Shown here one piece after another: positions 1,556 to 18,691 of a stretch of DNA of 18,692 nt (within the stretch, counting starts at the first letter, position 1; each line of letters begins with the position of its first letter). The stretch comes from an uncultured Lentisphaeraceae bacterium (GTDB lineage: Bacteria > Verrucomicrobiota > Kiritimatiellia > RFP12 > UBA1067). The stretch is from assembly GCA_964643945.1 (NCBI GenBank), contig CAZXVN010000184.1, positions 1-18,692 of the forward strand. The letters are read 5' to 3'. A program made the translations under genes and the position numbers. The notes below the pieces were generated by a model. It was not told where the DNA came from. It saw only the letters and a list, made by a program, of their open reading frames with translations, and made no database searches.

Positions 1556-2014
1556 TCACTGCTTCACCTGCGCCGACGGCGAATTGGTGCCAGGGGCGGA
1601 CCACCCGGCCGTCTTGGCCTTGATGTGCTGCCACGCGCCGGAACCGGCAAGAACAATCTCTTCCCGCAGTTGCCGCGCCTTTTCGGTCGCGCGCTCCATC
1701 GCGGTCGGCTCCGGCGGCGGCTGAGGCAGCAGGTCGCCGTAGCCGGCATTGATCAGCGCGCGGCTGAGTTCGTGCCTCGCCACGGCGTCTTCCCATTTCC
1801 AGCTGCGGATGTCGGCGCATGTGCCCGACAGGGCGACAAAGCGTTTGGGCACCACCACAAGCCCTTTTCCCGTCCGCACCAGATGGTGTCCGGAGAGCCA
1901 GACCAGCGAGCCCGCAATCACGGCCGCGCCGAGCACCGTCGTCACGCCCGCCCATATCCACATCCGCATCCGGAACGACCGGCTCCGCACCACCGAGACA
2001 AAATGCGTCCTCAT
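1556..2014 (-). CDS. hypothetical membrane-anchored protein (N-terminal TM helix, ~110 aa soluble domain)
   Basis: ATG at 2014-2012 is preceded by GGAGGTGAGC. The upstream ORF's TGA stop sits 2 nt before that ATG, suggesting translational coupling. Hydrophobic segment WIWAGVTTVLGAAVIAGSLVWL. Third codon positions are GC-rich, consistent with the other minus-strand genes. Confidence 0.55.
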   Translation of the reverse strand: MRTHFVSVVRSRSFRMRMWIWAGVTTVLGAAVIAGSLVWLSGHHLVRTGKGLVVVPKRFVALSGTCADIRSWKWEDAVARHELSRALINAGYGDLLPQPPPEPTAMERATEKARQLREEIVLAGSGAWQHIKAKTAGWSAPGTNSPSAQVKQ

Positions 2015-2016
2015 GC

Positions 2017-2358
2017 TCACCTCCCGCCGTACATCAGCCAACCGGCCACACCTGCAGCGACCAGCAACACAATCACCAGAACGATCATGCCCCAGTAGCT
2101 GCGGTGGCGGCATACGCCCGCTGGCGGCAGCGCCGAATCGATGCGCGTCCGACCGGCCCGCGCGTTGTACTCCTGCTCAAGCGTTTCTTTTCGGTTCACA
2201 AATTTCTCTCTCCCCTTCTGTCTTCTGACTCCTGTCTTCTGTCTTCTGACTTCTGACTCCTGACTCCTGTCTTCTGACTCCTGTCTCCTGACTCCTGACT
2301 TCTGTCTTCTGTCTCTCAAAACACCGCCCCCAGAATCGGCGAGCCGGTCGTGCCGCAC
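2017..2358 (-). CDS. small hypothetical membrane protein; N-terminal part is encoded by heptamer-repeat array 2216-2313 (ER/K-rich) and the C-terminus is a TM helix; start uncertain (alternative GTG at 2199 with GGGGAGAG RBS)
   Basis: ORF in the track. C-terminal MIVLVIVLLVAAGVAGWLMY. It overlaps the 3' end of gene 2316-2957 by 42 nt in another frame. Confidence 0.3.
   Translation of the reverse strand: MRHDRLADSGGGVLRDRRQKSGVRRQESEDRSQESEVRRQKTGVRRQKGREKFVNRKETLEQEYNARAGRTRIDSALPPAGVCRHRSYWGMIVLVIVLLVAAGVAGWLMYGGR
2216..2313 (+). repeat. heptamer array, 14 perfect units
   Basis: Begins 3 nt after the stop of gene 2316-2957. Confidence 0.85.
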
Positions 2359-2988: not shown

Positions 2989-3876
2989 TCACCGATGGAT
3001 ATTCAGCTCCTCAATCGTGTAAAGCCGGTTGATGATTCCGTCCGGGAAACGGTCGCGGTCATACACGATCCGGGCCTGCAACGTCCTGTTGACGTTATCC
3101 GTCGCAAGGATCGTACAGTCGTAAACCCCGGCGAGCGCGCGCACCCGTTGCGTAAACAGGGTCGGGTATTCCGAGTGAGACGAGAGGAACCAGGCGTTGG
3201 CGATCGTCACCATGCAGATCTCTGCCTTGCCGCCGACCTTCACACACGCGTCCGCCAGCCAGGGCGACACGGTTGTGGCCATCTTGTCGGCCACACTCTT
3301 CAGCGCGTCTCCTGCACCACGTCCGGGCGCGCCCTGCACGTCAAACCGGTTACGCGCCACCATGTCCGTCATCACCTGTTTCGTGATGGCGTTGAACTCC
3401 GGCGAGCGGGTAACAGTCGCATCCACATCGCCCTTATAAACCACCCGCGTACCGCGCGCGTTCAGCGGTTCGCAGGTCACGCCGAGGTCCGCATAGAGCT
3501 CGGCCGGCCCGTCATAGACCACTTTGTAGTTGGCGGCCGCCAGCGCGCCTTGCACGCCGTTGCCGAGCAGCGTCGCAACCTGCGTGGCATCCTGCCCCGC
3601 AGCCACGGGACGCACCCGCACCCGTACCTGCTCCAACACCGCCGACGCCGTGGCGATCTGGGTTTGCGCCGGACGCAGATCCACCGCCGTCGGACGCGCG
3701 CCAACCCCGGTCACCTGCACCGGCTGCGGCGTCACGATCATTCCGGGACTGGCCGTCACGGACACGCCGCCGGCCGTTGTTGCGGGATAGAGCACCGTCT
3801 TCGTTTCCACCGTCCGGCAGCCTGTCATCGCCAGCGCGAGCATGCCGGCACCTGTCACAAACATCATTTTTTTCAT
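2989..3876 (-). CDS. hypothetical lipoprotein
   Basis: Lipoprotein signal MKKMMFVTGAGMLALAMTGC (lipobox LAMTGC). 16-nt gap to the upstream gene and 31-nt gap to the downstream gene. Confidence 0.65.
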   Translation of the reverse strand: MKKMMFVTGAGMLALAMTGCRTVETKTVLYPATTAGGVSVTASPGMIVTPQPVQVTGVGARPTAVDLRPAQTQIATASAVLEQVRVRVRPVAAGQDATQVATLLGNGVQGALAAANYKVVYDGPAELYADLGVTCEPLNARGTRVVYKGDVDATVTRSPEFNAITKQVMTDMVARNRFDVQGAPGRGAGDALKSVADKMATTVSPWLADACVKVGGKAEICMVTIANAWFLSSHSEYPTLFTQRVRALAGVYDCTILATDNVNRTLQARIVYDRDRFPDGIINRLYTIEELNIHR

Positions 3877-3892: not shown

Positions 3893-5110
3893 TCAGCGCA
3901 CGCGGAAAATCAGCCGCGAGGCAAACCAACACACAACGAACACAATCAACAGCAGCACGATGTTGCGCAGCGTGACCAGCGCCAAAAGCTGGTCCACCAC
4001 GTTCTCCTGCAGCACATCCGGCTTGTAAATGCCGCGTCCGCTGGCGGCCGCGACGATCGCGAAGCTGTCGTTGATGTCACGGAACTTCGCGTCGAACACG
4101 ACCTCGGTGCGGATGGCGTTGGCCTTGATTGCCGTCGCCGAGCCCGTCACCGCGCCGATCCGGTCGCCGACCGGATCAACGACCGTCACGGGCGAGGCGT
4201 CCAGCACCGACACCGCGCCGGAAAGCACCGCCACCTTATCGCTGGCCGAACCTCGCTCCCCGCCGATGTCCTGATTGATCCGCTTGAGCAGAGAGTTGCT
4301 GACCTGCCGGTTCGTACCCACACGTTCGCGCAGAAAACGGGCCATCATCCGGTCGCGCACACTGCCGTTGGGGAGGTCAAGCACGCGGATGCTTTGCTCC
4401 TTGGAAAGACAGCGCAGGAAGTTCTGGGTCATGGCCCGGCCCAATGGGCCTTCCAGCGGCAGCACCAGAATCCGGTATCCCGCCAAACGCGAGAGCACCT
4501 GGCTAGCCGCATCTTCCGCCGCCTTCTCCATGGCCATGCGCGTGTTGCGGCTGACCATCTCGTTGTCCGGGCCCGGATCGTCGTAGATGCCCTCGACCGT
4601 TCCCGCCCACAGCCGCTCCGCCGTTTCAATACTGATCAGCCGTAATGAAACCCGCACGCTCGCTTTGCCGGCCCCGTCCGTCGCGTCAATCACACGTCCG
4701 ATGATGAAGGCTTCGGCCATTTTGAAAACGCCCGTTTTCGGCAGCGTCGCGGGATCATAATCGCCGAAGTCCGTGGCGGCGTCAAAGAACCGGTCGACTT
4801 CCGTCCACTCGGCCGCCTGATCCTGATGCGTCAGAAATTCAAACTCGGAAGGCGCCTGCACCAGCCCGTTCTCGAACACCGTTGCGAACTCGTTGCCTTC
4901 GGGAATCTTCGCGTTTCCCCGCATGAGTTTGACGAACGCGATGCGTTTGACTTTCACGCGGCTGTCCGTGGTCATTTGCATGACCGCCTGGAAAGCGGCG
5001 TCCTCCGCTGCGTATGAAAGCTCCCGCGGACCAGCGGTAACCGTCTGAGCGGTTGTGAGAAACCCCACGGTGCCAAGCGCGGCAACCGCGAGACCTGTGA
5101 AACGTTTCAT
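3893..5110 (-). CDS. exported protein with N-terminal signal peptide and C-terminal TM anchor; tandem domains loosely reminiscent of a CsgG/LpoB-type fold (inference)
   Basis: The internal ATG at 5110 has a strong RBS (AAAGGAG, 7 nt spacer). The track ORF 3893-5500 extends further upstream through repeat array 5275-5351, which is unlikely to be coding. Signal peptide MKRFTGLAVAALGTVGFLTTAQTVTA; C-terminal NIVLLLIVFVVCWFASRLIF. Confidence 0.6.
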   Translation of the reverse strand: MKRFTGLAVAALGTVGFLTTAQTVTAGPRELSYAAEDAAFQAVMQMTTDSRVKVKRIAFVKLMRGNAKIPEGNEFATVFENGLVQAPSEFEFLTHQDQAAEWTEVDRFFDAATDFGDYDPATLPKTGVFKMAEAFIIGRVIDATDGAGKASVRVSLRLISIETAERLWAGTVEGIYDDPGPDNEMVSRNTRMAMEKAAEDAASQVLSRLAGYRILVLPLEGPLGRAMTQNFLRCLSKEQSIRVLDLPNGSVRDRMMARFLRERVGTNRQVSNSLLKRINQDIGGERGSASDKVAVLSGAVSVLDASPVTVVDPVGDRIGAVTGSATAIKANAIRTEVVFDAKFRDINDSFAIVAAASGRGIYKPDVLQENVVDQLLALVTLRNIVLLLIVFVVCWFASRLIFRVR

Positions 5111-5163
5111 CGTGATGCTCCTTTGTTTTGTTCCCGCCGGACACCGCCGGCGGAAAGCGTTGT

Positions 5164-5188
5164 TGAAGAAGAAGTCAGAAGAAGACAG
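5164..5188 (-). repeat. reverse-orientation heptamer copy (GWCAGRA) in the spacer; inverted partner of 5275-5351
   Basis: gaagaagaa gtcagaa gaa gacagga. Confidence 0.6.
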
Positions 5189-5231
5189 GATTCGGAATCG
5201 CCGATGCCGACTGCTTTTTTCCGTCTTGCTT

Positions 5232-6179
5232 TCATTCCGGCTCCTGACATTTAATGCCCGTCTTTTCTTTCCCCTTCTGACTTCTGTCTTCTGACTCCTG
5301 GCTTCTGTCTTCCGACTTCTGTCTCCTGTCTTCTGTCTCCTGACTTCTGTCGCCCGTCTCCCCGAACCCGGCCAGCTCGGCCGCGAAATCGCCCGTGTCC
5401 CGGTCGCGCCTGCGGCCCGCGCGGTCCAGGTCTCCCACGGCGTCCTGCACCGACTCGGCGTCGCCGGTCTTGTCCTCGATGTCGTCCGCGAGCCGGTCAA
5501 TCAGGTTCTCGTCCACCTTGCCGCGCAGGCCGTGCGCGATCAGCTCCATGAAGCGCCCCTTGACCGTGAGGATCGTCTGCTCGTTCTCCGAGAGCAGCAT
5601 GAACTCGCGCTCCAGGCTCTTGTACTGCGTCATCAGCGTCTGCAGCTCGGTCTTCAACATGCGCTGGCGGACCGGCGAGGCACCCTCGTAGGCCTTCTTC
5701 TTCGAGGCGATCACCCCGTGCAGCACCTCCATCTCGGCCGACGCCTTCTCGCGCCGCGCGCGGTTCTCGTCCAGGCCGCTGTTGAGCGAACCCAGCATCG
5801 CCTCGGGCGAACGGTCCACATGGATCTTCGCCCACAGACCCTTCACGCCCGCGCCGATCTTTCCGGCCAGAACGACAGTCTCAGCCATGGCCTTCTTCGC
5901 CAGCTCCTTCGTGGCGCTGCGGACAAGCCGCTGTTCCTCCTCGCGGTTCTCGGCCCCTGTCTCATCCTTCTGACTTCTGTCTTCTGTCTTCTGACTTCTG
6001 ACTTCTGTTCCCATAACCTTCTCCTTCCATCCGTGCTCCGGACACCGCCCGTTACCTTGATTCGCATGCAACACGCAGAACGCCGCCCCGCACCCCTTCT
6101 CCGCACAGCGCCCCCCGACCGCCCAGCGGTTCGGCAGACTTTGCTCGCATATGCAACACTGTTCGCGCTTGTCATTCAT
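5232..6179 (-). CDS. zinc-ribbon protein with ER/K-rich linker and ~190-aa coiled-coil/helical domain (possible PspA/ESCRT-III-like); C-terminus encoded by repeat array
   Basis: N-terminal CCICEQ...C...C..CPEHG zinc-ribbon motif, then a helical region (RLVRSATKELAKKAMAE ... LIDRLADDIEDKTGD). Two heptamer arrays lie in-frame (5968-6009 linker, 5275-5351 C-terminus). The duplicated promoter element is ~160 nt upstream. Confidence 0.55.
   Translation of the reverse strand: MNDKREQCCICEQSLPNRWAVGGRCAEKGCGAAFCVLHANQGNGRCPEHGWKEKVMGTEVRSQKTEDRSQKDETGAENREEEQRLVRSATKELAKKAMAETVVLAGKIGAGVKGLWAKIHVDRSPEAMLGSLNSGLDENRARREKASAEMEVLHGVIASKKKAYEGASPVRQRMLKTELQTLMTQYKSLEREFMLLSENEQTILTVKGRFMELIAHGLRGKVDENLIDRLADDIEDKTGDAESVQDAVGDLDRAGRRRDRDTGDFAAELAGFGETGDRSQETEDRRQKSEDRSQESEDRSQKGKEKTGIKCQEPE
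5275..5351 (+). repeat. heptamer array, 11 units; encodes the C-terminus of gene 5232-6179
   Basis: ttctgac ttctgtc ttctgac tcctggc ttctgtc ttccgac ttctgtc tcctgtc ttctgtc tcctgac ttctgtc. Confidence 0.85.
5968..6009 (+). repeat. heptamer array, 6 units, forming an in-frame linker in gene 5232-6179
   Basis: Encodes GTEVRSQKTEDRSQKDE. Confidence 0.8.
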
Positions 6180-6235
6180 TTAATTCGTATACAATACCGT
6201 TTCCATTCTCCAGCCTCAAGCATCCCGTCTCCAAA

Positions 6236-6326
<91 letters not shown>

Positions 6327-6346
6327 TTTTTCCCTTAAACGCCGCT

Positions 6347-6376
6347 ATCTTACGTTTTGTTTACGTCTGTTGTCAA
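6347..6376 (-). promoter_or_regulatory. sigma70-like promoter (minus strand: TTGACA, 18-nt spacer, TAAGAT), copy A of a duplicated ~50-bp element; AT-rich UP-like tract at 6381-6440
   Basis: On the minus strand the sequence reads TTGACAACAGACGTAAACAAAACGTAAGAT. It is near-identical to 15977-16006 (4 mismatches over ~52 bp). Confidence 0.5.
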
Positions 6377-6482
6377 CTGCTATTATCAATTATTTTTAAA
6401 TTATTTTATTTTATCTCTGTTACTCATTACACGAACTCGAATCTTTCGCCGCTCTCGCCCCCCCATCGGACGGGCCCGCCCC

Positions 6483-7694
6483 TCACAACGTTCCCCCGGC
6501 CTCCAGCCAATCAGGAAGATACAGACGCCGCACGCCCTCGTAATCGTCGCCCGCCTCGCGGTCGAGCGTGAGCAACACCTTCGGATAGTTGTCTTTAACC
6601 GCCAGCAGCGGCGCGGTCTCCCGCTCGACCGTCGCCTTCGTCGGCAACAGATACGCGACCTGGATATACGTCTTCTTGCCCTCGCGCTCGGCCACGAAAT
6701 CGATCTCGAGATCGCCAACCCGCCCGACAGACACACGACAGCCCCTGCGCAGAAGCTCGAGACAGACCACATTCTCGAGCACTCCCCCGATATCGTCCGC
6801 ACGGTGTCCGAGCAAGGCCGTACGCAACCCCAGATCGCCGACATAGTGCTTCTCGTTCACCTCCAGATGCCGCCGGCCCTTGATATCGTACAGCAGCACC
6901 CGGTGGGTCAGGTGCGCCTCCGCGAACCACCGCATGTAATTCAGGATGGTGTCCACCCCCACGGAAAGTTTCTGACTCTTCAGAAACGCGTTGATCCGGC
7001 TGGCGTTCGTGAGATTGCCGATGTTGTCGAAAATATACCGCCCCACCTTTTCGAGCAGGGCGTAGTTCCGCACCTGATGACGCCGCACAATGTCCTTCAG
7101 CATGATCGTGTCGTAAACGCCCGTGACAAACGGCAGGAACGTCGCCTCGGCAAGCGGCCCGAACTCGTGCAGGCCGGGCAGCCCGCCATAGCGCAAGAAG
7201 GCCCTGAACGCCTCGGCTGTTTCCGTTTTCCGCAACCCGTTGAACGCCCGGAACTCCGTAAAGGAAAGCGGGTAGACCTGCACCTCCACGAACCTTCCCG
7301 CCAGCAGCGTGGCCAGCTCGCCGGAAAGCATCCGGGCGTTCGACCCGGTGATCACCACGTCCATGTCGCGCCGCCCGGACCCGTCCGCAACGATCCGCTC
7401 CCAGCCCTCGATCTCCTGGATCTCATCCACGAAAACGTGGCAGACCCCCTTGCCTTTCGGGCACGCGGCTTTCACATGCGCCGCCAGATCATGATACGTG
7501 CGGATCGCGTCGAACGCATACGACTCCTTGTCGACGTAGACGATCCGCTCCCGCCTCACCCCGTCCGCGACCAGCTTGTCGATCAGCCGGACCAGACAGC
7601 TCTTGCCCGAACGCCGCATCCCGGTGACGACCTTCACCACCGGCTTGCCCAGAAACGGCTCGATCTGCTTCACATAGAGATTTCGCTTATACAC
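6483..7694 (-). CDS. AAA_14 / DUF4143 family ATP-binding protein
   Basis: GTG start with AAGGAG RBS 8 nt upstream. Walker A GMRRSGKS, Walker-B-like HVFVDEIQ, and the long C-terminal region typical of the DUF4143 family. Confidence 0.8.
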   Translation of the reverse strand: MYKRNLYVKQIEPFLGKPVVKVVTGMRRSGKSCLVRLIDKLVADGVRRERIVYVDKESYAFDAIRTYHDLAAHVKAACPKGKGVCHVFVDEIQEIEGWERIVADGSGRRDMDVVITGSNARMLSGELATLLAGRFVEVQVYPLSFTEFRAFNGLRKTETAEAFRAFLRYGGLPGLHEFGPLAEATFLPFVTGVYDTIMLKDIVRRHQVRNYALLEKVGRYIFDNIGNLTNASRINAFLKSQKLSVGVDTILNYMRWFAEAHLTHRVLLYDIKGRRHLEVNEKHYVGDLGLRTALLGHRADDIGGVLENVVCLELLRRGCRVSVGRVGDLEIDFVAEREGKKTYIQVAYLLPTKATVERETAPLLAVKDNYPKVLLTLDREAGDDYEGVRRLYLPDWLEAGGTL

Positions 7695-8022: not shown

Positions 8023-10128
8023 CTACTGACCTGGGAGAAGGACAGCCCGGAACCCGATCCTGGAGTCGCGGTGGTTCGGTTTGCGGCCGCCGCGGTCCGC
8101 AACCCGGCAATCGCCCGCGTAGCCGCGCCAACTGCCGCCGCGGGCCACGCGGGGCGAGCCCGACGTCGGACCTGCGGGATCAGTCACACTCCCGGACGGA
8201 TAATCGCCGTACCAGTCCTGGCACCACTCCCACACGTTGCCGAGCATGTCGTAAAGACCCCAGGCGTTCGCCTGTTTCTGCCCTACAGCATGCGTCACCT
8301 GCCCACTGTTGCCGCTATACCAGCCCATATCCAGAGCTCCTGCATACGATCCCACCGCCCCCGCTCGACAAGCATACTCCCACTCCGCCTCCGTCGGCAG
8401 CCGAAACCGTCCCCCGGGAGGGACGCGCGTCTGCGCGTCCGCCAGCTTCGCGTTCAGCTTCCTCATAAACTCCTGACAGTCCTCCCAACTCACCTTCTCC
8501 ACCGGCAAATCAGCGCTCTTAAAGTTGCTGGGGTTGGTGCCCATGACTGCCCCCCACTGCCGCTGCGTCACCTCGGTCTTCCCCATCCAAAACCCCTTAG
8601 TAAGCGTCACCCGGTGCTGTGTCTCGTCTTTAGACCGGCCCGTTTCGCTTTCGGGACTCCCCATCATAAAGCTACCCGCCGGGCACCACGCCAGCTCGAT
8701 CTTCACGCCGCCGCCGAGGTCTAAAGTCTCCGTGTCGCCAGGGTTATGTCCGGCCTTCTGCACGGCGGCGCTTGCCACCTTTAGCCTCTCGCTTTCAGCA
8801 GCCAACGCTTCCTGCTTATGCGTTTCTTCCTGCTCGGACGCCGGACGCGCAGACGCGCGTCCCTCCGAGGCGTTAACGGGAGGGTCAAGCGTCTGCTTGA
8901 CCGCAAGACGCGCCTGTATCTCATGCCGGTTCCAAAAAGCCGCGAACCCATAGGCGGTCACAGCCGCAACCGCTCCAGCCGCAACCCACAGCCACGCCTT
9001 CCTCTTTCCTCCGCCATCCGCCTTCTGGCCACCGCCCTCTGGCTCCCGACGCCCGACGCCCGACTCACGACTCTCGACTCCCTGTCTTACGACCTCCACC
9101 TTCCAGTTTCTCTCCCCCTGCCCTCCGGCACCCTTTCCCGCCAGCGCCTTCACAAATTCCCCGCAGCTCGCGAACCTCTCCCCCGGCTCTTTTGCCAGCG
9201 CCCGCAACAGCGCCGCGTTGACATGCGCCGGCACGCCTTCCAGCGGACGGGGTGCCTCTTTCAGCACCGCCTCGCGCAGCACCGCTGTGTCGTGGCCCTC
9301 GAAGGGCGGCGACCCGCCCACCAGCTCGTAGACCGTCGCCGCCAGCGCGTACTGGTCCGCGGGCGCGCCCTGCGGCCGCCCCTGCCACTGCTCCGGCGCC
9401 ATGTAGGGTCCCGTGCCGCTCGTGCCGTGGGTGGTCTGGCTCACGCGGCTCAGGCTCATGTGCAATTGCGCCGCGAGCCCGAAGTCCAGCACCTTCACCT
9501 CGCCCGCGAAGTTCACCCGCACGTTGCTCGGCTTGATGTCGCGGTGGATCACGCCCTGCTCGTGCGCGAAGTCCAGCGCCTCCGCGATCCGGTAGGCGAT
9601 GATCGTCACCTCGTCCAGCGTCAGCGGCCGGCCCTCCTCGCGCCGCCGCCGCACCCACTGCCGCACGTCGTAGCCGTCCACGCACTCCATGACCAGATAA
9701 TAGTCGCCCGTGACCGGATCCTTCTCCAGCGTGTTGACGTTGGCGATGTTCGGGTGGTGGAGCTTCGAGACCAGCCGGAAGTTCTCGCGCACCTCCTCCA
9801 TCTCGCCGCTGTTGTGCCCCACCTCCGGAGGCAGCGCCTTCAGCGCCACATCCAAGCCCGCCACCTCATCGTGGCAGCGGTACACCACGCCCATGCCGCC
9901 CTGCCCAAGCTCCCCCTCCACCCGGTAGCGCCCCAAAAGCACCTCGCCGGCCGCTAGGCGCCGCCCCGCAGGCCCCGCCCCGCCCGGCCGCATCGTCTTG
10001 ACGCTGCCTAGGCTCAAGTCATCCGCGGGTGCGCTCCCGCCATGCCGCAGGGTCGGCGAATCGCCCAGGCTGCGGTCGTCCGGCGGCTTGCCGCCCATCG
10101 TCTTTTGATTGCCGATCGAGTTATCCAT
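8023..10128 (-). CDS. Hanks-type Ser/Thr protein kinase - TM - FGE-sulfatase (SUMF1-like) domain fusion
   Basis: LGQGGMGVVY, ALK, HRDIKPSNV, DFGLA, YMAPEQW; TM segment WLWVAAGAVAAVTAYGFAAF; C-terminal FGE-like region (GSFMMGSP ... GLYDMLGNVWEW ... RGGSW). The start is uncertain because there is no clear RBS at 10128. Confidence 0.85.
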   Translation of the reverse strand: MDNSIGNQKTMGGKPPDDRSLGDSPTLRHGGSAPADDLSLGSVKTMRPGGAGPAGRRLAAGEVLLGRYRVEGELGQGGMGVVYRCHDEVAGLDVALKALPPEVGHNSGEMEEVRENFRLVSKLHHPNIANVNTLEKDPVTGDYYLVMECVDGYDVRQWVRRRREEGRPLTLDEVTIIAYRIAEALDFAHEQGVIHRDIKPSNVRVNFAGEVKVLDFGLAAQLHMSLSRVSQTTHGTSGTGPYMAPEQWQGRPQGAPADQYALAATVYELVGGSPPFEGHDTAVLREAVLKEAPRPLEGVPAHVNAALLRALAKEPGERFASCGEFVKALAGKGAGGQGERNWKVEVVRQGVESRESGVGRREPEGGGQKADGGGKRKAWLWVAAGAVAAVTAYGFAAFWNRHEIQARLAVKQTLDPPVNASEGRASARPASEQEETHKQEALAAESERLKVASAAVQKAGHNPGDTETLDLGGGVKIELAWCPAGSFMMGSPESETGRSKDETQHRVTLTKGFWMGKTEVTQRQWGAVMGTNPSNFKSADLPVEKVSWEDCQEFMRKLNAKLADAQTRVPPGGRFRLPTEAEWEYACRAGAVGSYAGALDMGWYSGNSGQVTHAVGQKQANAWGLYDMLGNVWEWCQDWYGDYPSGSVTDPAGPTSGSPRVARGGSWRGYAGDCRVADRGGRKPNHRDSRIGFRAVLLPGQ
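9044..9114 (+). repeat. degenerate heptamer-periodic array (TCCCGAC/GCCCGAC/TCACGAC/TCTCGAC...) lying in-frame inside kinase 8023-10128
   Basis: 7-nt periodicity read directly. It encodes VEVVRQGVESRESGVGRRE at the position homologous to the ER/K inserts of kinase 1-1391. Confidence 0.5.
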
Positions 10129-10190: not shown

Positions 10191-10232
10191 TTCTGTCTTC
10201 TGACTTCTGTCTCCTGACTCCTGTCTTCTGTC
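10191..10232 (+). repeat. heptamer array, 6 units, in the Vps4-like to kinase spacer
   Basis: ttctgtc ttctgac ttctgtc tcctgac tcctgtc ttctgtc. Confidence 0.8.
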
Positions 10233-10234
10233 GC

Positions 10235-11353
10235 CTATCCGAACCGCGCCTGCCTGAACTTTTCGAACTCGCGCAGCATCGCTTCCGTGATCGAGCTGGG
10301 GACGCGCCGCCGCGCCTCCTCGAAGTCCCCTGCCGTCAAAACAGGATCGCCATCTTCAAGCACGGCGCGGCCGAGCGCAAGGCGCTTGGCCGTGTTCACG
10401 ACCGCCGCCACGTCGCTCCCGGAAAAGCCCTCCAGCGCCTCCGCCAGCGCGCCTCCATCCACCGCCTCGCCGCACACGGCGCTTCCCAGATGCTTTTTGA
10501 AAATGCCCAGCCGAGCCTCGGCGTCCGGCGGCCCGATGAAAATCTTCTCGTCGAAACGCCCCGTGCGGAACACCGCCTCGTCGATCTCCCACGGCTTGTT
10601 CGTGGCGCCCAGGATCAACAGCACGTTCTTCGTCTCGCGGAAACCGCCCACATCCGCCAGGAACTGCGTCACGATGCGGTGGTCGGCACCGGAGGTGCCG
10701 TCGTCGCGCTTGGGCAGCAGCGCCTCGACCTCGTCCAGAAACAGCACCGCCATCGGCTGCTCCTGAGCCGTGCGGATCAGCCGGCTCAGCCGCTGCTCCG
10801 ACTCGCCGTACCACTTGGACCGCAACTGCGCGCCCGAGGCATAGTAGAACGGACACTCCAGCACTCCCGCCACCGCCTTGCCCAGCATCGTCTTGCCGGT
10901 GCCGGGAGGGCCGTACACCAGCACGCCCCCGCCCGGATTCAGCCCCAGCGCCCGCGCTTTCTCGGGGCTCTTCATCGGATACACCACCATCTCGTGGATC
11001 ACGCGCTTCGCGTCGGCCATGCCCGCAATGTCGTCGAATGTCACGTCCGGCTTCTCCGCCACCAGCCACTCGTCGCCGTCGGAAGGCTCGACGCTCGACT
11101 CACGACCAGCGACGGGCGAATGCTGACCGCCGCCCGCCGACTGCCGCTTCTTTAGCTCATTCGCCAGCGCCACCCACCCCTCCGCGTCCTGCGCGTGCGC
11201 CTCGGCCACAGGCCCGCTGCTGCGCTCCGCCAGCGCGAAGCCGCACTCCGCCGCGCGCGCCGCCGCCGCCGCCGCACGCCCGTAGTCGCGCACCTTGACG
11301 AACTCCGCGCAGGCGTTCTCGTGCCCCGTTTTGATCTCAACCATCGAGCGCAT
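10235..11353 (-). CDS. Vps4-like (meiotic clade) AAA+ ATPase with ~100-aa N-terminal extension (possible MIT-like domain)
   Basis: Walker A GPPGTGKT; pore loop 1 SKWYGESE (the Vps4/spastin/katanin signature); Walker B LFLDEVEA; GATNKPWEIDEAVFRTGRFD; C-terminal helix MLREFEKFRQARFG (compare the Vps4 C-terminal ...W..EFG). The start follows the upstream gene's stop by 12 nt, with RBS GAGAGGGGA. Confidence 0.85.
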   Translation of the reverse strand: MRSMVEIKTGHENACAEFVKVRDYGRAAAAAARAAECGFALAERSSGPVAEAHAQDAEGWVALANELKKRQSAGGGQHSPVAGRESSVEPSDGDEWLVAEKPDVTFDDIAGMADAKRVIHEMVVYPMKSPEKARALGLNPGGGVLVYGPPGTGKTMLGKAVAGVLECPFYYASGAQLRSKWYGESEQRLSRLIRTAQEQPMAVLFLDEVEALLPKRDDGTSGADHRIVTQFLADVGGFRETKNVLLILGATNKPWEIDEAVFRTGRFDEKIFIGPPDAEARLGIFKKHLGSAVCGEAVDGGALAEALEGFSGSDVAAVVNTAKRLALGRAVLEDGDPVLTAGDFEEARRRVPSSITEAMLREFEKFRQARFG

Positions 11354-11365: not shown

Positions 11366-11989
11366 TCACTTCAGCATCTCGCGCACCTTCTCCTGGCCGC
11401 CGCCGATGCGGCGTTCCAGATCGGAAGAGGTCTTCGCGCTCACGCCGGAAATGTCGGCGGACACCTCCTGCTCCAGCGATTTCGTCAGCTCCTCCATGGA
11501 CGGGATGTGGTCCTGCATGTTGCCTGTCGCGCCTTCCATCTCCTTGTCGTACAGCGACGCCCAGAAGCGGTCCGCGTCCTGCTGCTCGCCCAGCAACTCG
11601 CCCGCCGTGTCGAACACGTCCTCGACCATTTCCGGATTGATGTCCGTTACCTTGTTGACCGCCGCCAGTGCGCTGGCGAACTCGGCGTCGGTCCCGGCGG
11701 TCTCCATCTTCATGAGATACTGCTCGAACACCCAGCGCTTCTGCTCCAGCTTGGTCATCAGCACCTGCGCCGCGCGGTAGCTGGTCAGGGAGCGCTGCGC
11801 GGCCGCCTTCTTTCCTTCCTTGAGCGCGTCCCGCGCCTTCTGCCAGTCCGCCTCCGCGTCCTTCTCCATACGCTTGGCGCGGTCTTTCACATCCTGCACC
11901 GCGTTCTCCGCCTGCCGGAACGCCCGCCGCCGGTCCTTGCGCACCGCCCGCTCTTTTTCCTTCTTCGTCTTGATGAATAGAAAACTCAT
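11366..11989 (-). CDS. ESCRT-III / Snf7-family (PspA-Vipp1 superfamily) protein
   Basis: 207 aa. N-terminus MSFLFIKTKKEKE resembles the CHMP/Snf7 MxxLFGK motif. Basic helical N-half (KDRRRAFRQAENAVQDVKDRAKRMEKDAE...KEGKKAAAQRSL) and acidic C-half (PEMVEDVFDTAGELLGEQQDAD...). C-terminal SSDLERRIGGGQEKVREMLK resembles a MIM1 (D/E)xxLxxRL motif. Strong RBS AAAGGAG. The next gene downstream is the Vps4-like ATPase. Confidence 0.65.
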   Translation of the reverse strand: MSFLFIKTKKEKERAVRKDRRRAFRQAENAVQDVKDRAKRMEKDAEADWQKARDALKEGKKAAAQRSLTSYRAAQVLMTKLEQKRWVFEQYLMKMETAGTDAEFASALAAVNKVTDINPEMVEDVFDTAGELLGEQQDADRFWASLYDKEMEGATGNMQDHIPSMEELTKSLEQEVSADISGVSAKTSSDLERRIGGGQEKVREMLK

Positions 11990-12008: not shown

Positions 12009-12043
12009 AGCAGAAGACAGAAGTCAGAAGACAGAAGTCAGAA
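12009..12043 (-). repeat. reverse-orientation heptamer array, 5 units; inverted partner of 12082-12154
   Basis: cagcaga gacagaa gtcagaa gacagaa gtcagaa. Confidence 0.8.
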
Positions 12044-12081: not shown

Positions 12082-12154
12082 TTCTGATTCCTGACTCCTG
12101 ACTTCTGTCTCCCGTCTCATTCTGACTTCTGACTCCTGTCTCCTGACTCCTGCC
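12082..12154 (+). repeat. heptamer array, ~10 units, in the FHA to ESCRT-III spacer
   Basis: ttctgat tcctgac tcctgac ttctgtc tcccgtc ... ttctgac ttctgac tcctgtc tcctgac tcctgcc. Confidence 0.8.
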
Positions 12155-12157: not shown

Positions 12158-13735
12158 TCACAGCCCATACTGACTAAACGTCTTGACCTCGATCTGCACG
12201 CCGCCCGCGCCGATCCGCGTGCCGGGCACCAGCCACCCCGCCGCACCCTCCGCACGCCAGGCGAACGCGCCGCGCTCGTGGCACACCGTCACCCCCTCGC
12301 ACCCCGGCAGAATGTTCCCGAGATCCAGGCAGGACCACATCACCGCATAGACCTCCGACACCGCGTCCCGGCGCCGCAGGATGACCGCAGGCGTCTTGCC
12401 GCGGTGGCACATCTTCTCGTCGCGCCCCCCGCACGCCGCGCACCGCGCCGTATCGAAAAAGCAGCCGTGCGCCGTCAGCCCGAAATCGTATGCGTCCGCC
12501 GTGCCCGCCAACCCCAGCGCGGCCACTGCGGGAAAACGGTCCGCCGGAAAGCGCTCGCTGCCCTTGACCGCCCGACCCTGCCAGAAAACCCCGCAGGCGG
12601 AGGCTTGCATCACACCGTTCTCAGTCCGCACACCGTCATGCACAATGCACTGCCCGTCGGCGTACTCCAGCGTGCAGTGAAACTTGCTGATGCGCGCGTT
12701 GCGTTCAGGAAGGGCCTCGCCGTCCGGCTCGAACAACCGCGTCACGATCTGATTGGCGCGGTTCTTGCCCAATGTGACCCGACTTCCCGCGATCAGATGC
12801 GCAATCCGGTTCCCGACGCGAAGAGTCACCCGCTCGGCCGTCGCCGCCGCAGGTGCCGCAGGCAGCGGGTGATGCAGCACCCAGCCCGACTCAAAAAGAC
12901 TCAGCCGGTGAAACGCCGGCGGCTTGGAGTGCAGCAGGTTCAGCAGTTCCTCGATCGAATGGGCCTGCCCGTTCTTGACCAGCTTGCTCACCGCCTCGGC
13001 CGCGTCCTGGTGTACACGGATATCCGCCGCATGCCCGGCCTTGATGTCGTTGTTGATGTTGAAGGTGATGTTGTCCGCGACCTGCTTGGTCGAACAGTCC
13101 GCCGGATAAACGAACAGGCATACCTCGGTCTCGTATGTGGTGGTCTTGCCGTCTTTCGTCAGCCCGAAGTAGACCGACGCCGAGAACGCGCCGTGATTCA
13201 TGGGATGCACCGGCAGGTTGATCCCGCGCGGCACCCCGAGCTTGGGGTTCGGCCAGTTGAAGGGATGCTCGACCACCTGAGAGATCCCGTTCGGCTTGAG
13301 CCACACGCGGACGTGCTGGACACCCTCGACAAGCGGCGTCAGCCGGAAGCGCACCAGCGCGCTGGCACCCGCCACGCAGAACGCCAGGGTGTCGCTTTCC
13401 ACACACAGCCACGGGCAATCCCCGAAGCCGTCATCGTCCGTGCCGACGCTCTGCGCCGCCGCAGTCCGCTCATTGACGGGTTCGGTGTTGAGCAGAATGA
13501 TCCGGGCCGGCCGCTCGTCAGGATCTGGCGTCCTGATGATCGCGGCAACCGCCGACGGCGCCTCGCCCACGGAATCGCCCGGCCTCCGCAGATAAGTCGG
13601 CTCCGGCCGGAAACCGCTCTCGGCTTCCGCAGGCGTTGCCGCCGACGGACCCGGCGCCAGCGGCGCGCCGCATCTGTCGCAGAACGAGCCCTCTACCGTC
13701 TTCCCTCCGCATGTCCGGCAACTCACCCGAGCCAT
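12158..13735 (-). CDS. zinc-ribbon + FHA-domain protein with Cys-rich C-terminal region
   Basis: N-terminal CRTCGGKTVEGSFCDRCG. FHA-like core GKNRANQIVTRL...RISKFHCTLEYADGQCIVHDGVRTENGVMQASACGV. C-terminal CAACGG...C..GCEGVTVC. RBS GAGGAG 8 nt upstream; the start lies 12 nt after the upstream stop. Confidence 0.7.
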   Translation of the reverse strand: MARVSCRTCGGKTVEGSFCDRCGAPLAPGPSAATPAEAESGFRPEPTYLRRPGDSVGEAPSAVAAIIRTPDPDERPARIILLNTEPVNERTAAAQSVGTDDDGFGDCPWLCVESDTLAFCVAGASALVRFRLTPLVEGVQHVRVWLKPNGISQVVEHPFNWPNPKLGVPRGINLPVHPMNHGAFSASVYFGLTKDGKTTTYETEVCLFVYPADCSTKQVADNITFNINNDIKAGHAADIRVHQDAAEAVSKLVKNGQAHSIEELLNLLHSKPPAFHRLSLFESGWVLHHPLPAAPAAATAERVTLRVGNRIAHLIAGSRVTLGKNRANQIVTRLFEPDGEALPERNARISKFHCTLEYADGQCIVHDGVRTENGVMQASACGVFWQGRAVKGSERFPADRFPAVAALGLAGTADAYDFGLTAHGCFFDTARCAACGGRDEKMCHRGKTPAVILRRRDAVSEVYAVMWSCLDLGNILPGCEGVTVCHERGAFAWRAEGAAGWLVPGTRIGAGGVQIEVKTFSQYGL

Positions 13736-13747: not shown

Positions 13748-15418
13748 TCAATGCACGATCGTCTGCGGCTGGGCCGCCTGCCGTTTGGCAGCCTCCACCG
13801 CCGGCTCGAGCATCGTTTTCAGGTTCTTGTCCTGCCGGTCGTTGGCATCCGCGTAGAGCTTCTTCATCTCAGCCAGCAGCATCTCGGCGTTCTGCCTGGT
13901 GCGGTCGCTCATCTTGCCGAGCGCCTCCGCCGCCGCCGGGCTGCTGTGCGCCGCCTCGGCCAGGATCTGCTCGGGCGTCATCGTGCGGTTGCGCTCCACC
14001 ATCATCAGCTCGACCAGCTGACGCCGCAGGGCGGGATCGTCCACATCCGCCAGCATCTGCTCCGTGGTCATCCCCGCACGCCGCTTGGCCTCAGCCGCCT
14101 TGCGCTCCAGCTCTATCCCGTCTTTCCGGGAACGCATGTCCAGCGCCCACTCCGCCTCGGTCTTCTCCTGCTGGAACGTCTCGTTCCGGGCCTTGGCCTG
14201 CGCGTTGGCCTGCTTCACGGCAAGCTCAAGATTGTAATCGTCCCATTTGACCTTGACGCCGATCGCCTGCTCCGCCTTCTGGTTCTCGACATCGTGCCGG
14301 TGCCGCAGATCGTCCAGCTCGTTCAGATGCGCATAGCCGCGCAGCAGCACCGTCCGCTCCTGCTCGCGCTGGGCCTGCGCGATGCCGTGCTCGTGCGCGG
14401 CCTGCTCCTCGTACTCCAGCAGGTCGGTCTTGTCCTTGAACTGGGCCATCGCCTCTTTGTTCAGCAGCCCGCGCATGGCCGACGCGTACTCCAGCTCGCG
14501 CCGCTTGATGTCCACCTCGCCGAGCCGCTCCGCGTACTCCTCGTACTCGTCGCCCGTGAACTCCGCCGACGACACGCGCACCACCTGCAGGCCGTACCGC
14601 CCGATGTCCTCGCCGATCGCCCGGACCATCGTCTCCTGCAGGCGCAGCCGCCGCTCAGGATCGCGCACAAGGTCATCCAGCGTAGAGGTCACGCACAGCG
14701 CGTCCACCGCCGCGCGCACCGCCCCCTGCAGCGCCTCGGAAAGATCCTTGTACGCCAGATGACGCCGGTCCTTGAGCCCGTTCTCCAGCAGCGCCAGCGC
14801 GGCGGCCTTGTCATTGCCGAACCGCAGGATCACCTCGCCGTAGAACTCGATCGGGTGATGCTCCGCCGTACGCAGACCGGTCACGCGCAGCGGCAGCGCC
14901 ACGTCGCCGCAGTCGGCCATCACTGCCGAGCGCGGGGGCGGGTCGCCGAACCAGTTGATCTTGCGCGCCAGGCTGTCCGGGTTGTGACGGCCGCTCTCGA
15001 GGATGCCGTGGATGTGGCCGCCGTCCAGCACCACCGCCACCGTGCCCTCCTGCACCATCAGGTCGTCCTGCAAGAGCCGCTTGATGTCGCCGATCTCGAA
15101 GCGCTGCGCGAACAGCCCCGGATCCTTGCGCCACACGCCGCCGGCCATCACCGCGCGGTCTTCCGGGAAGAGCGGGGTGTTGCAGTGCGAGCAATACTGC
15201 GACGCGTTGCCGATCCACTTCTTGCACGAGGGACACTTCCACCAGCCCCCCGGCGCGGGCACGCCGCACTTGTTGCAGAAGCGCGCGGCCTTGCGCACCG
15301 AATTGCCGCAGCGCGCCCACTTCGGATCCAGTTTCGCCTGCGCCAAGGCCTCGCCGCCCAGCGCCCGCCCCGTCCGGGGGTCGATCAAAGCGTCACACCG
15401 GTCACTGAATATGCCCAT
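13748..15418 (-). CDS. zinc-ribbon + SPFH (band-7 / flotillin-like) protein with long C-terminal coiled coil
   Basis: Two CxxC pairs (CGNSVRKAARFCNKCG, CPSCKKW...CSHCNTP), then an SPFH core (QEGTVAVVLDGGHIHGILESGRHNPDS ... GLQVVRVSSAEF), then ~250 aa of E/K/R/A-rich coiled coil. RBS AAAGGCGAGGT. Confidence 0.75.
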   Translation of the reverse strand: MGIFSDRCDALIDPRTGRALGGEALAQAKLDPKWARCGNSVRKAARFCNKCGVPAPGGWWKCPSCKKWIGNASQYCSHCNTPLFPEDRAVMAGGVWRKDPGLFAQRFEIGDIKRLLQDDLMVQEGTVAVVLDGGHIHGILESGRHNPDSLARKINWFGDPPPRSAVMADCGDVALPLRVTGLRTAEHHPIEFYGEVILRFGNDKAAALALLENGLKDRRHLAYKDLSEALQGAVRAAVDALCVTSTLDDLVRDPERRLRLQETMVRAIGEDIGRYGLQVVRVSSAEFTGDEYEEYAERLGEVDIKRRELEYASAMRGLLNKEAMAQFKDKTDLLEYEEQAAHEHGIAQAQREQERTVLLRGYAHLNELDDLRHRHDVENQKAEQAIGVKVKWDDYNLELAVKQANAQAKARNETFQQEKTEAEWALDMRSRKDGIELERKAAEAKRRAGMTTEQMLADVDDPALRRQLVELMMVERNRTMTPEQILAEAAHSSPAAAEALGKMSDRTRQNAEMLLAEMKKLYADANDRQDKNLKTMLEPAVEAAKRQAAQPQTIVH

Positions 15419-15526
15419 CGTATACCTCGCCTTTCATTGATTCGAATTCAACAGTCGGATTAGCACTAATCCTTATTCAGTTTTAAACACAATACCCGAA
15501 TCCATTCATTCATGCACGAAATTACT

Positions 15527-15540
15527 AACAGAAGTCAGAA
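15527..15540 (-). repeat. reverse-orientation heptamer copy (aacagaa gtcagaa); inverted partner of 15594-15621
   Basis: Read directly. Confidence 0.5.
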
Positions 15541-15589
15541 TAGTGGAAGAATTTGCTTTCAACCGTTTGCCCGTCTTCTCTTTCCCGCC

Positions 15590-15949
15590 TCAGTCTGACT
15601 TCTGTCTTCTGACTTCCGGCTTCTTCTCCCCATGTGCCCCGCACACTCGCACGCCCTGCCGTTTCCAGCAATCGAAACAGACCGGCGCGCCGCAGACCGT
15701 GCAGGCCTGCTGCAGCGCGCCCTTGCTCCGGTAATAGGTGCCGCACGCCTCGCAGGTCCCGCCTTCGGCGGCCTCCCGCTTGCTGCGGCTCAAATAGTCG
15801 CCCAGATCCGTCCGCGAGACCCGGTACAGCTTGCCCAGGCGCGCGGCGGGCAGCTCGCCCGCGCGCACCAGCCGGTAGATGAGTTGATAGGTCACGCCCA
15901 TCTCGTCCGCTACCTCCTCCAGGCTCAGATGCTCTTTGTCCGTCGGCAT
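15590..15949 (-). CDS. HTH_17 (MerR/excisionase-family) DNA-binding protein with C-terminal zinc ribbon; putative regulator and first gene of string 1
   Basis: LSLEEVADEMGVTYQLIYRLVRAGELPAARLGKLYRV (helix-turn-helix), then CEACG...CTVCG..CFDC...C. The preferred start is the ATG at 15949 with GGAGGTG 7 nt upstream; the track's 15955 is a GTG inside the RBS. The last codons read into repeat array 15594-15621. Confidence 0.65.
   Translation of the reverse strand: MPTDKEHLSLEEVADEMGVTYQLIYRLVRAGELPAARLGKLYRVSRTDLGDYLSRSKREAAEGGTCEACGTYYRSKGALQQACTVCGAPVCFDCWKRQGVRVCGAHGEKKPEVRRQKSD
15594..15621 (+). repeat. heptamer array, 4 units, forming the C-terminus of the regulator gene
   Basis: gtctgac ttctgtc ttctgac ttccggc; encodes ...PEVRRQKSD*. 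Confidence 0.75.
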
Positions 15950-15976
15950 ATACACACCTCCTCTTAAAACGCCGCC

Positions 15977-16006
15977 ATCTTACGTTTTGTTTACTTCTGT
16001 TGTCAA
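15977..16006 (-). promoter_or_regulatory. sigma70-like promoter, copy B of the duplicated element (minus strand TTGACA, 18 nt, TAAGAT), ~25-nt leader to the regulator gene; AT-rich UP-like tract at 16011-16075
   Basis: On the minus strand the sequence reads TTGACAACAGAAGTAAACAAAACGTAAGATGGCGGCGTTTTAAGAGGAGGTGTGTATATG. Confidence 0.55.
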
Positions 16007-16081
16007 CAGCTATTTTAAAATATTTTTTATTGCTGTATTTTTATGCCTGATATAGCGTCCCTTAAACGGTTTCCCTGCTAC

Positions 16082-16107
16082 TTGAACGTTGAACTCTCAA
16101 CGTTCAA
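16082..16107. promoter_or_regulatory. perfect inverted repeat TTGAACGTTGA-N4-TCAACGTTCAA, 75-100 bp upstream of the copy-B promoter -35; candidate transcription-factor site
   Basis: Read directly: 11-bp arms with a 4-nt spacer, and each arm is also near-palindromic. No U-tract follows, so it is not a terminator. Confidence 0.4.
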
Positions 16108-18274: not shown

Positions 18275-18657
18275 TCAGCGCGGGGCTGTGCCTGGTTGGG
18301 CCGCGGGCGACACCGGCGGAGCTGATCCGACGACCTGCCCGGCAGTCAACACCTGCCGATCCGCCAGCAGCCGCGCGCGCAACTCGGCATAGGGCACATC
18401 CTGCACGGCCACACCCCCGTCAATGGCCAGCGCCGCCGCCGTGGCTGCCGACTGGCCGAGAATCATAAATACCGGTTCCATGCGAATGGAGCCATAGGCG
18501 ATATGTGACGCCGATACACAGATCGGCACCAGCAGGTTGGCGCATTCCGCGCGGCGGGGACGAAGCGTCCGAAAGGCTATCTCGTAGGGATTCTTGAGCG
18601 CAATCTGCAGGTCGCCTTCATTTCGCACGAAGCCTTTTTCGTCCACATAGCGCTGTG
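18275..18657 (-). CDS. C-terminal fragment of an FAD-dependent oxidoreductase-family protein, truncated by the contig end and adapter
   Basis: ...[62 protein letters not shown], which resembles the conserved C-terminal region of FAD_oxidored-type proteins (from memory). The first 11 track codons ([11 protein letters not shown]) are adapter-derived. Confidence 0.55.
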
Positions 18658-18691
18658 AGATCGGAAGAGCACACGTCTGAACTCCAGTCAC
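18658..18691 (+). other. Illumina TruSeq adapter sequence AGATCGGAAGAGCACACGTCTGAACTCCAGTCAC at the contig end (contamination)
   Basis: Exact 34-nt match to the universal TruSeq adapter read-through sequence. It yields the well-known artefactual peptide GVQTCALPI in ORF 18275-18691. Confidence 0.95.

Follow-up and report, generated by a model that had tools for sequence, protein, structure and literature searches.

Two copies of a conserved promoter-like element stand before the two parts of a divided gene cluster in a Kiritimatiellia-type bacterium

Contig CAZXVN010000184.1 (assembly GCA_964643945.1) of an uncultured Lentisphaeraceae bacterium, which GTDB places in the Kiritimatiellia, carries two strings of genes that are preceded by closely similar AT-rich elements. 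The window considered here is the whole stretch of 18,692 nucleotides, and all genes of interest lie on its minus strand. Copy B of the element precedes the gene of a small regulator with an HTH_17 domain, the head of string 1, and copy A precedes the gene of a Zn-ribbon coiled-coil protein (ZnCC), the head of string 2. This raises the question what the element is and why it should stand before two different sets of genes. A preliminary description of the window had regarded both copies as promoters. As set out below, this is probably correct, and copy A would be a duplicate of copy B that accompanied the division of a formerly continuous gene cluster.

The two copies constitute an 86-nt direct repeat (family D8, 6337-6422 and 15967-16052) with 81% identity, and the sequences flanking it are unrelated between copies A and B. 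An offset of 9630 brings 6337-6385 and 15967-16015 into exact register, with four differences among 49 positions, in agreement with the earlier claim that a near-identical element lies in front of both gene strings. The coordinates originally given for copy B (15962-16012) were shifted by approximately 3-5 nt, since the downstream edge contains a 1-nt indel (TTTAAG in one copy, TTTTAAG in the other). Each copy has TTGACA, 18 nt and TAAGAT on the minus strand (6376..6347 in copy A, 16006..15977 in copy B). This arrangement had been recognized before and was recovered by a scan of the window for sigma-70-like promoters, which returned 7 sites where 2.2 were expected. Copies A and B were the top-scoring sites with 10 of 12 matching positions each, 6/6 in the -35 and 4/6 in the -10 hexamer. 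When up to 3 mismatches were allowed, a 30-mer core occurred exactly twice in the window, compared to 0.00 expected occurrences in 200 shuffles. The GC content of the window is 63%, and its two most AT-rich 60-mers (6355-6414 with 82% AT, 15985-16044 with 80% AT) are the tracts directly upstream of the two -35 hexamers, in line with the AT-rich islands that had been picked out by eye. The parts of the two copies are the following, with labels from L001 onwards denoting the loci used for comparison:

6337-6422, minus strand: copy A, the whole repeat (family D8), comprising an AT-rich upstream tract, the predicted core promoter and the first bases expected to be transcribed.
6371-6376, minus strand: -35 hexamer TTGACA of copy A from the promoter scan, the same in the orthologous copy-A sites of L001, L016, L045, L046, L048 and L049.
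6353-6370, minus strand: 18-nt spacer of copy A, ACAGACGTAAACAAAACG, which holds TAAACAAA at 6363..6356 and is nearly invariant in the subclade of the window.
6347-6352, minus strand: -10 hexamer TAAGAT of copy A from the promoter scan; TAAAAT, TAATAT or TAAGAT in orthologues.
6377-6422, minus strand: AT-rich, UP-element-like tract of copy A, in which AATAGCAG adjoins the -35 hexamer; 88% AT over the 40 nt upstream of -35.
6180-6340, minus strand: predicted 5' untranslated region (UTR) of copy A, approximately 161 nt, with +1 put at G6340 by hexamer geometry only; contains a heptamer array at 6236-6328.
15967-16052, minus strand: copy B, the whole repeat (family D8).
16001-16006, minus strand: -35 hexamer TTGACA of copy B from the promoter scan; TTGACA in 25/30 and TTG in 30/30 orthologous promoters.
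15983-16000, minus strand: 18-nt spacer of copy B, ACAGAAGTAAACAAAACG, which holds TAAACAAA at 15993..15986.
15977-15982, minus strand: -10 hexamer TAAGAT of copy B from the promoter scan; TAnnnT in orthologues, often with an upstream TGn.
16007-16052, minus strand: AT-rich, UP-element-like tract of copy B; 80% AT over the 40 nt upstream of -35.
15950-15970, minus strand: predicted 21-nt 5' UTR of copy B, with +1 put at G15970, a GC-rich discriminator GGCGGC and the Shine-Dalgarno sequence GGAGG at 15961..15957.

Both +1 sites were placed 7 nt past the -10 hexamer, and RNA polymerase would thus start at about G15970 and G6340. In copy B, the -10 hexamer ends 27 nt ahead of the regulator ATG at 15949, which is the start used in the public annotation instead of the GTG at 15955 in the list of open reading frames (ORFs). 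In copy A, 167 nt separate the element from the ATG of ZnCC (6179), and the heptamer array lies in between. Both copies combine -35 and -10 hexamers and a spacer within the range of 17±1 nt, and both lie upstream of a gene start at which they point, in copy B with GGAGG as the ribosome-binding site. The tracts upstream of -35 have the composition of an UP element (80-88% AT), and their match to the consensus for the C-terminal domain of the RNA polymerase alpha subunit (alpha-CTD) is partial (AAAATAGCAG).

The case for a promoter is carried mainly by comparison. Orthologous regulator loci were gathered by protein search and contig look-ups, together with a scan of GTDB species representatives (33 loci). 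In L001-L011, the strict pattern TTGACA-N17/18-TAnnnT was confined to the promoter positions considered here. Both strands of L012-L044 (451,637 bp) contained 24 strict matches, 21 of them directly upstream of the regulator, one upstream of ZnCC where this gene heads a permuted cluster (L016), and two at unrelated places. Five further genomes have a near-consensus version, e.g. TTGACG, TTGGCA or TTGCAA with TGnTAnAAT. Among the orthologous regulator promoters of 30 genomes, TTG was found in all 30 and TTGACA in 25, and the spacer was 17 nt long in 16 genomes, 18 nt long in 13 and 16 nt long in a single one. The variable positions of the -10 hexamer favor A or T as in TATAAT (variants TAAAAT, TAATAT, TATAAT and TAAACT), and an extended TGn is present in 14/30. 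The invariance of the hexamers over these genomes is partly due to the procedure by which the sites were picked. The informative point is that such a site is present at that place almost everywhere and elsewhere almost nowhere.

In about 30 genomes, the -35 and -10 hexamers are held at fixed spacing upstream of the orthologous regulator and their surroundings diverge, which agrees with the initial assignment of both copies as promoters. Compared with five relatives, the element of the window is 73-93% identical. The corresponding values are 47-69% for synonymous third positions of the adjacent regulator gene and approximately 50%, equal to background, for the 80 nt that follow upstream. Synonymous sites of the regulator gene thus evolve faster than the element, indicating purifying selection. 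A metagenome scan with the core pattern yielded two contigs, one with a copy-A orthologue before ZnCC and one with a copy-B orthologue before the regulator. The full pattern TTGACAN6GTAAACAAAACGTAAGAT had no match in the contigs of the representative genomes, a set that does not include the source genome. Together, the comparative footprint strongly supports the interpretation that the element is what would be expected of a promoter read by the primary sigma factor. A literature search, itself uninformative, found no mapped promoter in Kiritimatiellia-type bacteria.

Why there are two copies can be read from a gene-order map based on tblastn of the window proteins against all loci. In the distant relatives L021, L026, L027 and L029, the genes follow each other in the order regulator, Band7, Zn-FHA, Snf7-like, AAA, ZnCC, p535, p295, p213 and (kinase); the AAA stop codon adjoins the ZnCC start or overlaps it, without an AT-rich island in between. 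The orthologues of string 2 in L009 and other loci are likewise located inside a single operon, and the single-cluster relatives have only one strict promoter, at the head. The subclade of the window consists of the window itself, L012 and L045, L004 and L046, L014 and L048, L006 and L049, and L001, with regulators that are 79-86% identical. Here, kinases and/or AAA_14 genes are found upstream of ZnCC, and only in this subclade does the element occur a second time, directly before ZnCC. Copy A was found in this position in the window, L001, L045, L046, L048, L049 and additionally in L016. The cluster of L016 is permuted (ZnCC, p535, p295, p213, p185, regulator, Band7 onward), and the element heads ZnCC, with no element detected in the GC-rich region before the regulator. 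Therefore, the promoter goes with the head of the transcription unit, whichever gene this is. These gene orders support the view that both strings form one functional unit and, with it, the earlier proposal of a single regulon, since in relatives the strings are one contiguous cluster behind one such promoter.

Copies A and B have subclade-specific features in common outside the hexamers, namely the spacer, the stretch AAAATAGCAG preceding the -35, the discriminator GCGGCGTTT(T)AAG and the beginning of the leader, which identifies them as true paralogues and not as consensus promoters that converged. Within genomes they also have derived states in common: TAAGAT in the window, TAAAAT in L012/L045 and ACAAACATAAACAAA in L014/L048. 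As a check for concerted evolution or gene conversion, an identity matrix of A and B copies was calculated, in which the diagonal (0.65-0.93) compared with the off-diagonal values (0.56-0.85) gave no consistent within-genome excess. As a separate observation, a repeat GCAGACAGGAATGTCTG(C/T)GCCACC flanks both promoter copies in L014 and L048.

From these data, we consider it probable that each copy is a strong housekeeping promoter of the sigma-70 type that fires leftward on the minus strand. Copy B would represent the ancestral promoter at the head of a gene cluster that genomes of the Kiritimatiellia and Lentisphaerota type have conserved, in the order HTH_17/Zn-finger regulator, SPFH/Band7, Zn-ribbon FHA-like, Snf7-like, AAA ATPase, ZnCC, exported proteins and kinase. 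In the subclade of the window, kinase and AAA_14 genes would have come between the AAA ATPase and ZnCC, and a duplicate of the head promoter (copy A, approximately 85 nt) would then have come to precede ZnCC. Both halves would start from the same signal and thereby stay co-expressed, and the duplication would serve their co-regulation. In a speculative second layer, TAAACAAA sites bound by a regulator similar to Xis or BldC may provide autoregulation and a single switch for both strings.

Several points weigh against this explanation. The whole case is built on sequence and comparison, the -10 hexamer matches at just four of six positions and the 18-nt spacer is suboptimal. The copy count covers the 18.7-kb window, and if more copies should stand before unrelated genes, the element may be a generic strong promoter. 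Since no terminator was predicted between string 1 and copy A, string 2 could be expressed by read-through, and copy A would then be partly redundant. Parsimony on about 35 loci, and not a species tree, gave the direction of the change, split versus fusion. The operator layer is speculative, with the upstream repeats of TAAACAAA degenerate in the window, and the phased A-rich motif could equally reflect intrinsic curvature or an UP element.

Among the alternatives, the best surviving one holds that the element is conserved chiefly as an operator of the HTH_17 protein, with GTAAAC-type repeats over the spacer and -10 mediating autorepression or remodelling of both promoters. We regard this as a tentative possibility, which would add to the promoter function and not exclude it. 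In its favor, conservation of the spacer (ACAGAnGTAAACAAAACG, with the motif GTAAACAAAAC-GTAAnAT) in both copies and throughout the subclade exceeds the requirements of polymerase. In the window, each copy has one full TAAACAAA repeat and, 11 nt later, the half motif GTAAGAT, and the repeats further upstream are degenerate. In contrast, distant relatives repeat the 8-mer TAAACAAA upstream of -35, at starts of -56/-57, -46/-47, -36/-37, -26/-27, -16/-17 and +13 relative to the -35, i.e. with a phasing of 10 nt. In approximately 1 Mb, 31 of 39 occurrences of TAAACAAA lie within 250 nt upstream of regulators, and two of the remaining 8 belong to the head promoter of L016. Its enrichment goes beyond mere composition, because 21 of the 28 AT-rich islands that precede regulators contain the motif, versus 3 of 17 other AT-rich islands. 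Promoters with an 18-nt spacer mostly have the motif in the spacer (10/13), and most of those with a 17-nt spacer have TGn instead (10/16). A further occurrence was noticed in L042, a metagenome-assembled genome of the Victivallales, where two TAAACAAA repeats and then TTGACA on the opposite strand are located at approximately 240-310 on the minus strand. No obvious ORF follows this module before the contig end, and the regulator of L042 is without a strict promoter of its own.

The predicted properties of the regulator are compatible with binding to direct repeats. Its helix-turn-helix (HTH) is nearly invariant across the family, 8 Cys/His residues are invariant, and its AlphaFold model (pLDDT 81.5) has a winged HTH of the Xis, BldC or MerR-like fold. 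Foldseek placed the model closest to the direct-repeat binders Xis (4j2n, TMt 0.79), BldC (6amk, 0.81-0.82; 6ama, 0.75) and RdfS (8dgl, 0.67-0.69), and RacA was also matched. The regulator profile matches 4j2n by sequence as well (E 0.0018), and the C-terminal part resembles the RING-type zinc finger of SLX1 (E 0.002). BldC forms head-to-tail multimers on AT-rich direct repeats (PMC5859096). That the product of the first gene would bind the phased TAAACAAA repeats and regulate both promoters is therefore plausible, but less likely than not, because the Foldseek E-values are modest (2e-3 to 4e-2), each copy in the window has a single full motif and a half motif, and phased A-rich tracts can work through DNA curvature or alpha-CTD contacts with no dedicated factor. 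Somewhat unlikely in its full form is the more specific proposal that the phased motif is the operator of a winged HTH protein similar to Xis and BldC, which carries a zinc-binding domain, oligomerizes head-to-tail and switches both halves of the cluster. Under this proposal, the array upstream of -35 in most Kiritimatiellia, on one helical face, may occupy an activator or architectural position, and in the subclade of the window the repeat pair may have shifted to the spacer and -10, where a repressor would bind, and been duplicated with the promoter.

A promoter for an alternative sigma factor of the extracytoplasmic function (ECF) or stress type, or a twisted promoter of the MerR type, is improbable. 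In its favor are the length of the spacer, which at 18 nt exceeds the optimum, the MerR-superfamily-like HTH encoded by the first gene, and the resemblance of the cluster to an envelope-stress or membrane-remodelling system; such systems are often controlled by sigma-E or ECF factors. However, TTGACA and TAnnnT are canonical hexamers, to which relatives add an extended TGn, no GGAAC...CGT pair exists at 16-17 nt, and the CGT of the spacer is absent from distant orthologues. MerR-type promoters have a spacer of 19-20 bp with a dyad operator, whereas the spacers here are 17-18 nt long and contain no dyad. A palindrome CTGTTGaCAACAG over the -35 was considered as an operator and rejected, since only copy B has it in perfect form and orthologues keep no more of it than TTGaCAA.

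The preliminary description had further proposed that a whole promoter-plus-operon unit was duplicated as a segment and then diverged. The promoter and the terminal kinases are indeed paralogous, yet this origin is very improbable. An all-vs-all BLASTP of the window proteins found similarity only between the two kinases (43% over 303 amino acids, E 2e-65) and in no other cross-string pair, and the paralogy of the kinases says little because kinases of this type are tandemly expanded in relatives. The genes of string 2 are orthologues of single-cluster genes, contiguous after or inside string 1 elsewhere, and the repeat is only approximately 86 nt long with unrelated flanks. A small mobile or gene-converted repeat similar to MITE or REP sequences and without promoter function is hardly credible. 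It might be suspected from a short intergenic repeat with two copies, given that this genome clearly accommodates short repeats at scattered places, the heptamer arrays among them. However, the element occupies orthologous positions in one orientation at a fixed distance to gene starts across the whole class (at least 30 genomes). It has unrelated flanks and neither terminal inverted repeats nor target duplications, the 18.7 kb of the window contain two copies, synonymous sites evolve faster than the element, and the metagenome scan gave only two matches, both orthologous. Viral contigs scanned with the degenerate core gave no match.

The predicted leader downstream of copy A consists mostly of an array of 12 heptamer units, GGAGACA/GAAGACA (6236-6328 according to TRF), of which L001 has 3 and L045 and L016 have none. 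Because the number of units varies down to absence among relatives, the array is best regarded as a lineage-specific insertion into the leader outside the promoter. Length and sequence of the copy-A UTR differ between relatives, and its fold (z = -0.31) indicates an unstructured RNA. A cis-regulatory RNA such as a riboswitch or structured leader was therefore rejected: there is no significant fold, the UTR is not conserved, and a search of the whole window and both intergenic regions against Rfam gave nothing relevant at the gathering threshold or at E≤1. The possible leader ORF that had been pointed out here (MLEAGEWKRYCIRIK, 6230-6183) does not hold up, as it lacks a start in L001 and other loci have a different small ORF or none.

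Heptamer arrays (GGAGACA/GAAGTCA/GAAGACA on the minus strand) are not restricted to this leader and occur at almost every gene junction of the window and also within coding regions, at 785-817, 2215-2315, 5274-5359, 5967-6008, 6236-6328, 10191-10232, 12011-12043 (opposite orientation), 12083-12152 and 15594-15624. Those in coding regions encode low-complexity tails or linkers of the EVRRQK type, and the last approximately 10 residues of the regulator are encoded by such an array in the window. The arrays are limited to the source lineage, with short ones in L001, L002 and L045 and none in other relatives. Several relatives have another, GC-rich repeat, GGCTCGCCCGGCGGTCG(A/G)GC(C/A)CTAC, in intergenic DNA (L002 at approximately 1060-1130; the 5' UTR of ZnCC in L046 and L047), and in L046 it is located inside the 330-nt leader downstream of copy A. 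Upstream of copy B, the window contains a perfect 11-bp inverted repeat, TTGAACGTTGA-actc-TCAACGTTCAA, at 16082-16107 without a T-run, and nearby a second small palindrome, CTCAAatTTGAG. Both lie approximately 80-110 nt upstream of the copy-B -35 and may represent a terminator or insulator of the upstream HEAT-repeat gene, or a protein-binding site.

The genes of the two strings and the gene between them are the following:

15590-15949, minus strand: regulator of 119 amino acids with HTH_17 (Pfam E 1.4e-11) and a C-terminal zinc-binding domain (8 Cys/His); head of string 1.
13748-15418, minus strand: SPFH/Band7 protein with a double zinc ribbon; string 1.
12158-13735, minus strand: Zn-ribbon protein with weak FHA similarity; string 1.
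11366-11989, minus strand: 207-amino-acid protein with a sub-threshold Snf7 match; string 1.
10235-11353, minus strand: single-domain AAA ATPase; string 1.
8023-10128, minus strand: Ser/Thr kinase with an FGE-sulfatase domain; string 1.
6483-7694, minus strand: AAA_14/DUF4143 ATPase (Pfam; PADLOC PDC-S01, E 9e-138), between the strings.
5232-6179, minus strand: ZnCC, 315 amino acids, without a Pfam match; head of string 2.
Within 3893-5500, 2989-3876, 2316-2957 and 1556-2113, minus strand: exported proteins or lipoproteins; string 2.
Running past the window start, minus strand: second kinase; string 2.

The exact regulator protein is also present on NCBI contig JBAXCU010000023.1 (GCA_037141315.1), and the genomes of its relatives are labelled Kiritimatiellae/Kiritimatiellia, Lentisphaerae or Victivallales. 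The gap between the regulator and Band7 genes (15419-15589, 170 nt) ranks third in the window by AT content (68% AT at 15432-15491), and the small hairpin in it, GGATTAgtgcTAATCC, lacks a T-run. As an attenuator or internal signal, the gap could separate expression of the regulator from that of the effectors. The label ESCRT-III/Vps4 for the Snf7-like and AAA proteins is not secure. The 207-amino-acid protein scored 20.4 bits with the Snf7 Pfam model against a threshold of 27.3 and had no match in a PDB sequence search, and the best PDB sequence matches of the AAA ATPase are D2 domains of p97/Cdc48/VCP rather than Vps4. Reviews state that Vps4-like ATPases are apparently absent from bacteria (PMC7619361), whereas another survey describes their transfer to bacteria (PMC11237479).

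Together with the kinase gene at 8023-10128, the gene of the AAA_14/DUF4143 ATPase keeps the two halves of the cluster apart, and distant relatives lack it at this place. The cluster positions of its homologues differ among relatives (L045, L049), as would be expected of an accessory gene with repeated insertion; the PADLOC family it matches, PDC-S01, is a candidate defense family. The cluster as a whole was considered as a known defense system and rejected, as PADLOC gave domain-level matches only (mad1, PD-T4-6, IetA). In the distant relative L009 (16934-17923) and also in L010, a Peptidase_C14 (caspase-like) gene lies between the Snf7-like and AAA genes, and other relatives have 2-4 very large kinase/FGE-sulfatase genes in a run after the cluster. 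The public annotation of ZnCC (P0122, 260 amino acids) begins at an internal Met and thereby loses an N-terminal zinc ribbon (CCxC...C...C...H). Since this ribbon is encoded upstream of the called start in all orthologous loci, many database entries of the ZnCC family are N-terminally truncated. The window differs from the NCBI record L003 by a few bases upstream of copy B. Its minus strand at 18658-18692 reads GGTGACTGGAGTTCAGACGTGTGCTCTTCCGATCT, which we take to be a remnant of an Illumina TruSeq adapter, and L003 begins exactly past it; on this assumption, the ORF at 18275-18691 begins with adapter-derived residues.

With the promoter reading, a concrete and comparatively validated promoter becomes available for the Kiritimatiellia-type bacteria of the Planctomycetes-Verrucomicrobia-Chlamydiae (PVC) group, a phylum-level group, and the primary sigma factor of these bacteria very probably reads the canonical TTGACA/TATAAT code. 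The promoter also defines a transcriptional unit for a widespread and uncharacterized cluster of regulator, SPFH, Zn-ribbon and Snf7-like proteins, AAA ATPase and exported proteins, and it represents an unusually clean natural case of promoter duplication at the split of an operon. A testable pair of cis-motif and regulator, by which the system might be switched on or off, is provided by TAAACAAA and the HTH_17/Zn-finger protein. If the operator reading should be true, the protein would be a regulator of the BldC type from outside the Actinobacteria, equipped with a novel effector domain, and a switch for a membrane system of Snf7-like, AAA and SPFH proteins. The promoter itself is mechanistically ordinary, and the biology that it drives may be more interesting.

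Compared with known systems, the element most resembles the sigma-70 promoter of E. coli, which consists of TTGACA, 17±1 nt and TATAAT with an optional TGn and an A/T-rich UP element from -40 to -60. The resemblance includes a perfect -35, a spacer of 17-18 nt, a -10 with T-12, A-11 and T-7, TGn in many orthologues and an upstream tract of 80-88% AT that ends in AAAATAGCAG, similar to a proximal UP subsite. The GC-rich discriminator is as in stringently controlled promoters. In contrast to that model, the spacer sequence is itself conserved here, and the upstream tract of relatives carries a phased 8-mer and not generic A/T. The operators of BldC and Xis are similar in that the candidate sites, most clearly in relatives, are AT-rich direct repeats with C/G, spaced by approximately one helical turn, in one orientation and variable number, and the modelled N-terminal domain of the regulator superposes on Xis, BldC and RdfS. 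However, BldC and Xis lack the additional C-terminal zinc-binding domain with 8 Cys/His, and the predicted repeat unit is TAAACAAA with a period of 10-11 nt, compared to AATTnnnnC for BldC. Since no recombinase is located nearby, the locus is not an excision module. At class I activator promoters, sites for CRP are centered at -61.5, -71.5 and -81.5. The motifs of relatives likewise recur every 10 nt upstream of -35 and so share one helical face, as in class I or curved-DNA upstream activating sequences, whereas in the subclade of the window the motif is within the spacer, a typical repressor position. Any activator is conjectural. The psp and lia envelope-stress operons combine effectors of the PspA/ESCRT-III superfamily with a dedicated regulator (PMC7619361, PMC11237479), comparable to the weakly Snf7-like protein, SPFH/Band7 protein and regulator behind one promoter described here. 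In contrast to psp, which depends on sigma-54 and PspF, this cluster would be transcribed from a promoter of the sigma-70 type and is headed by a regulator similar to Xis and BldC.

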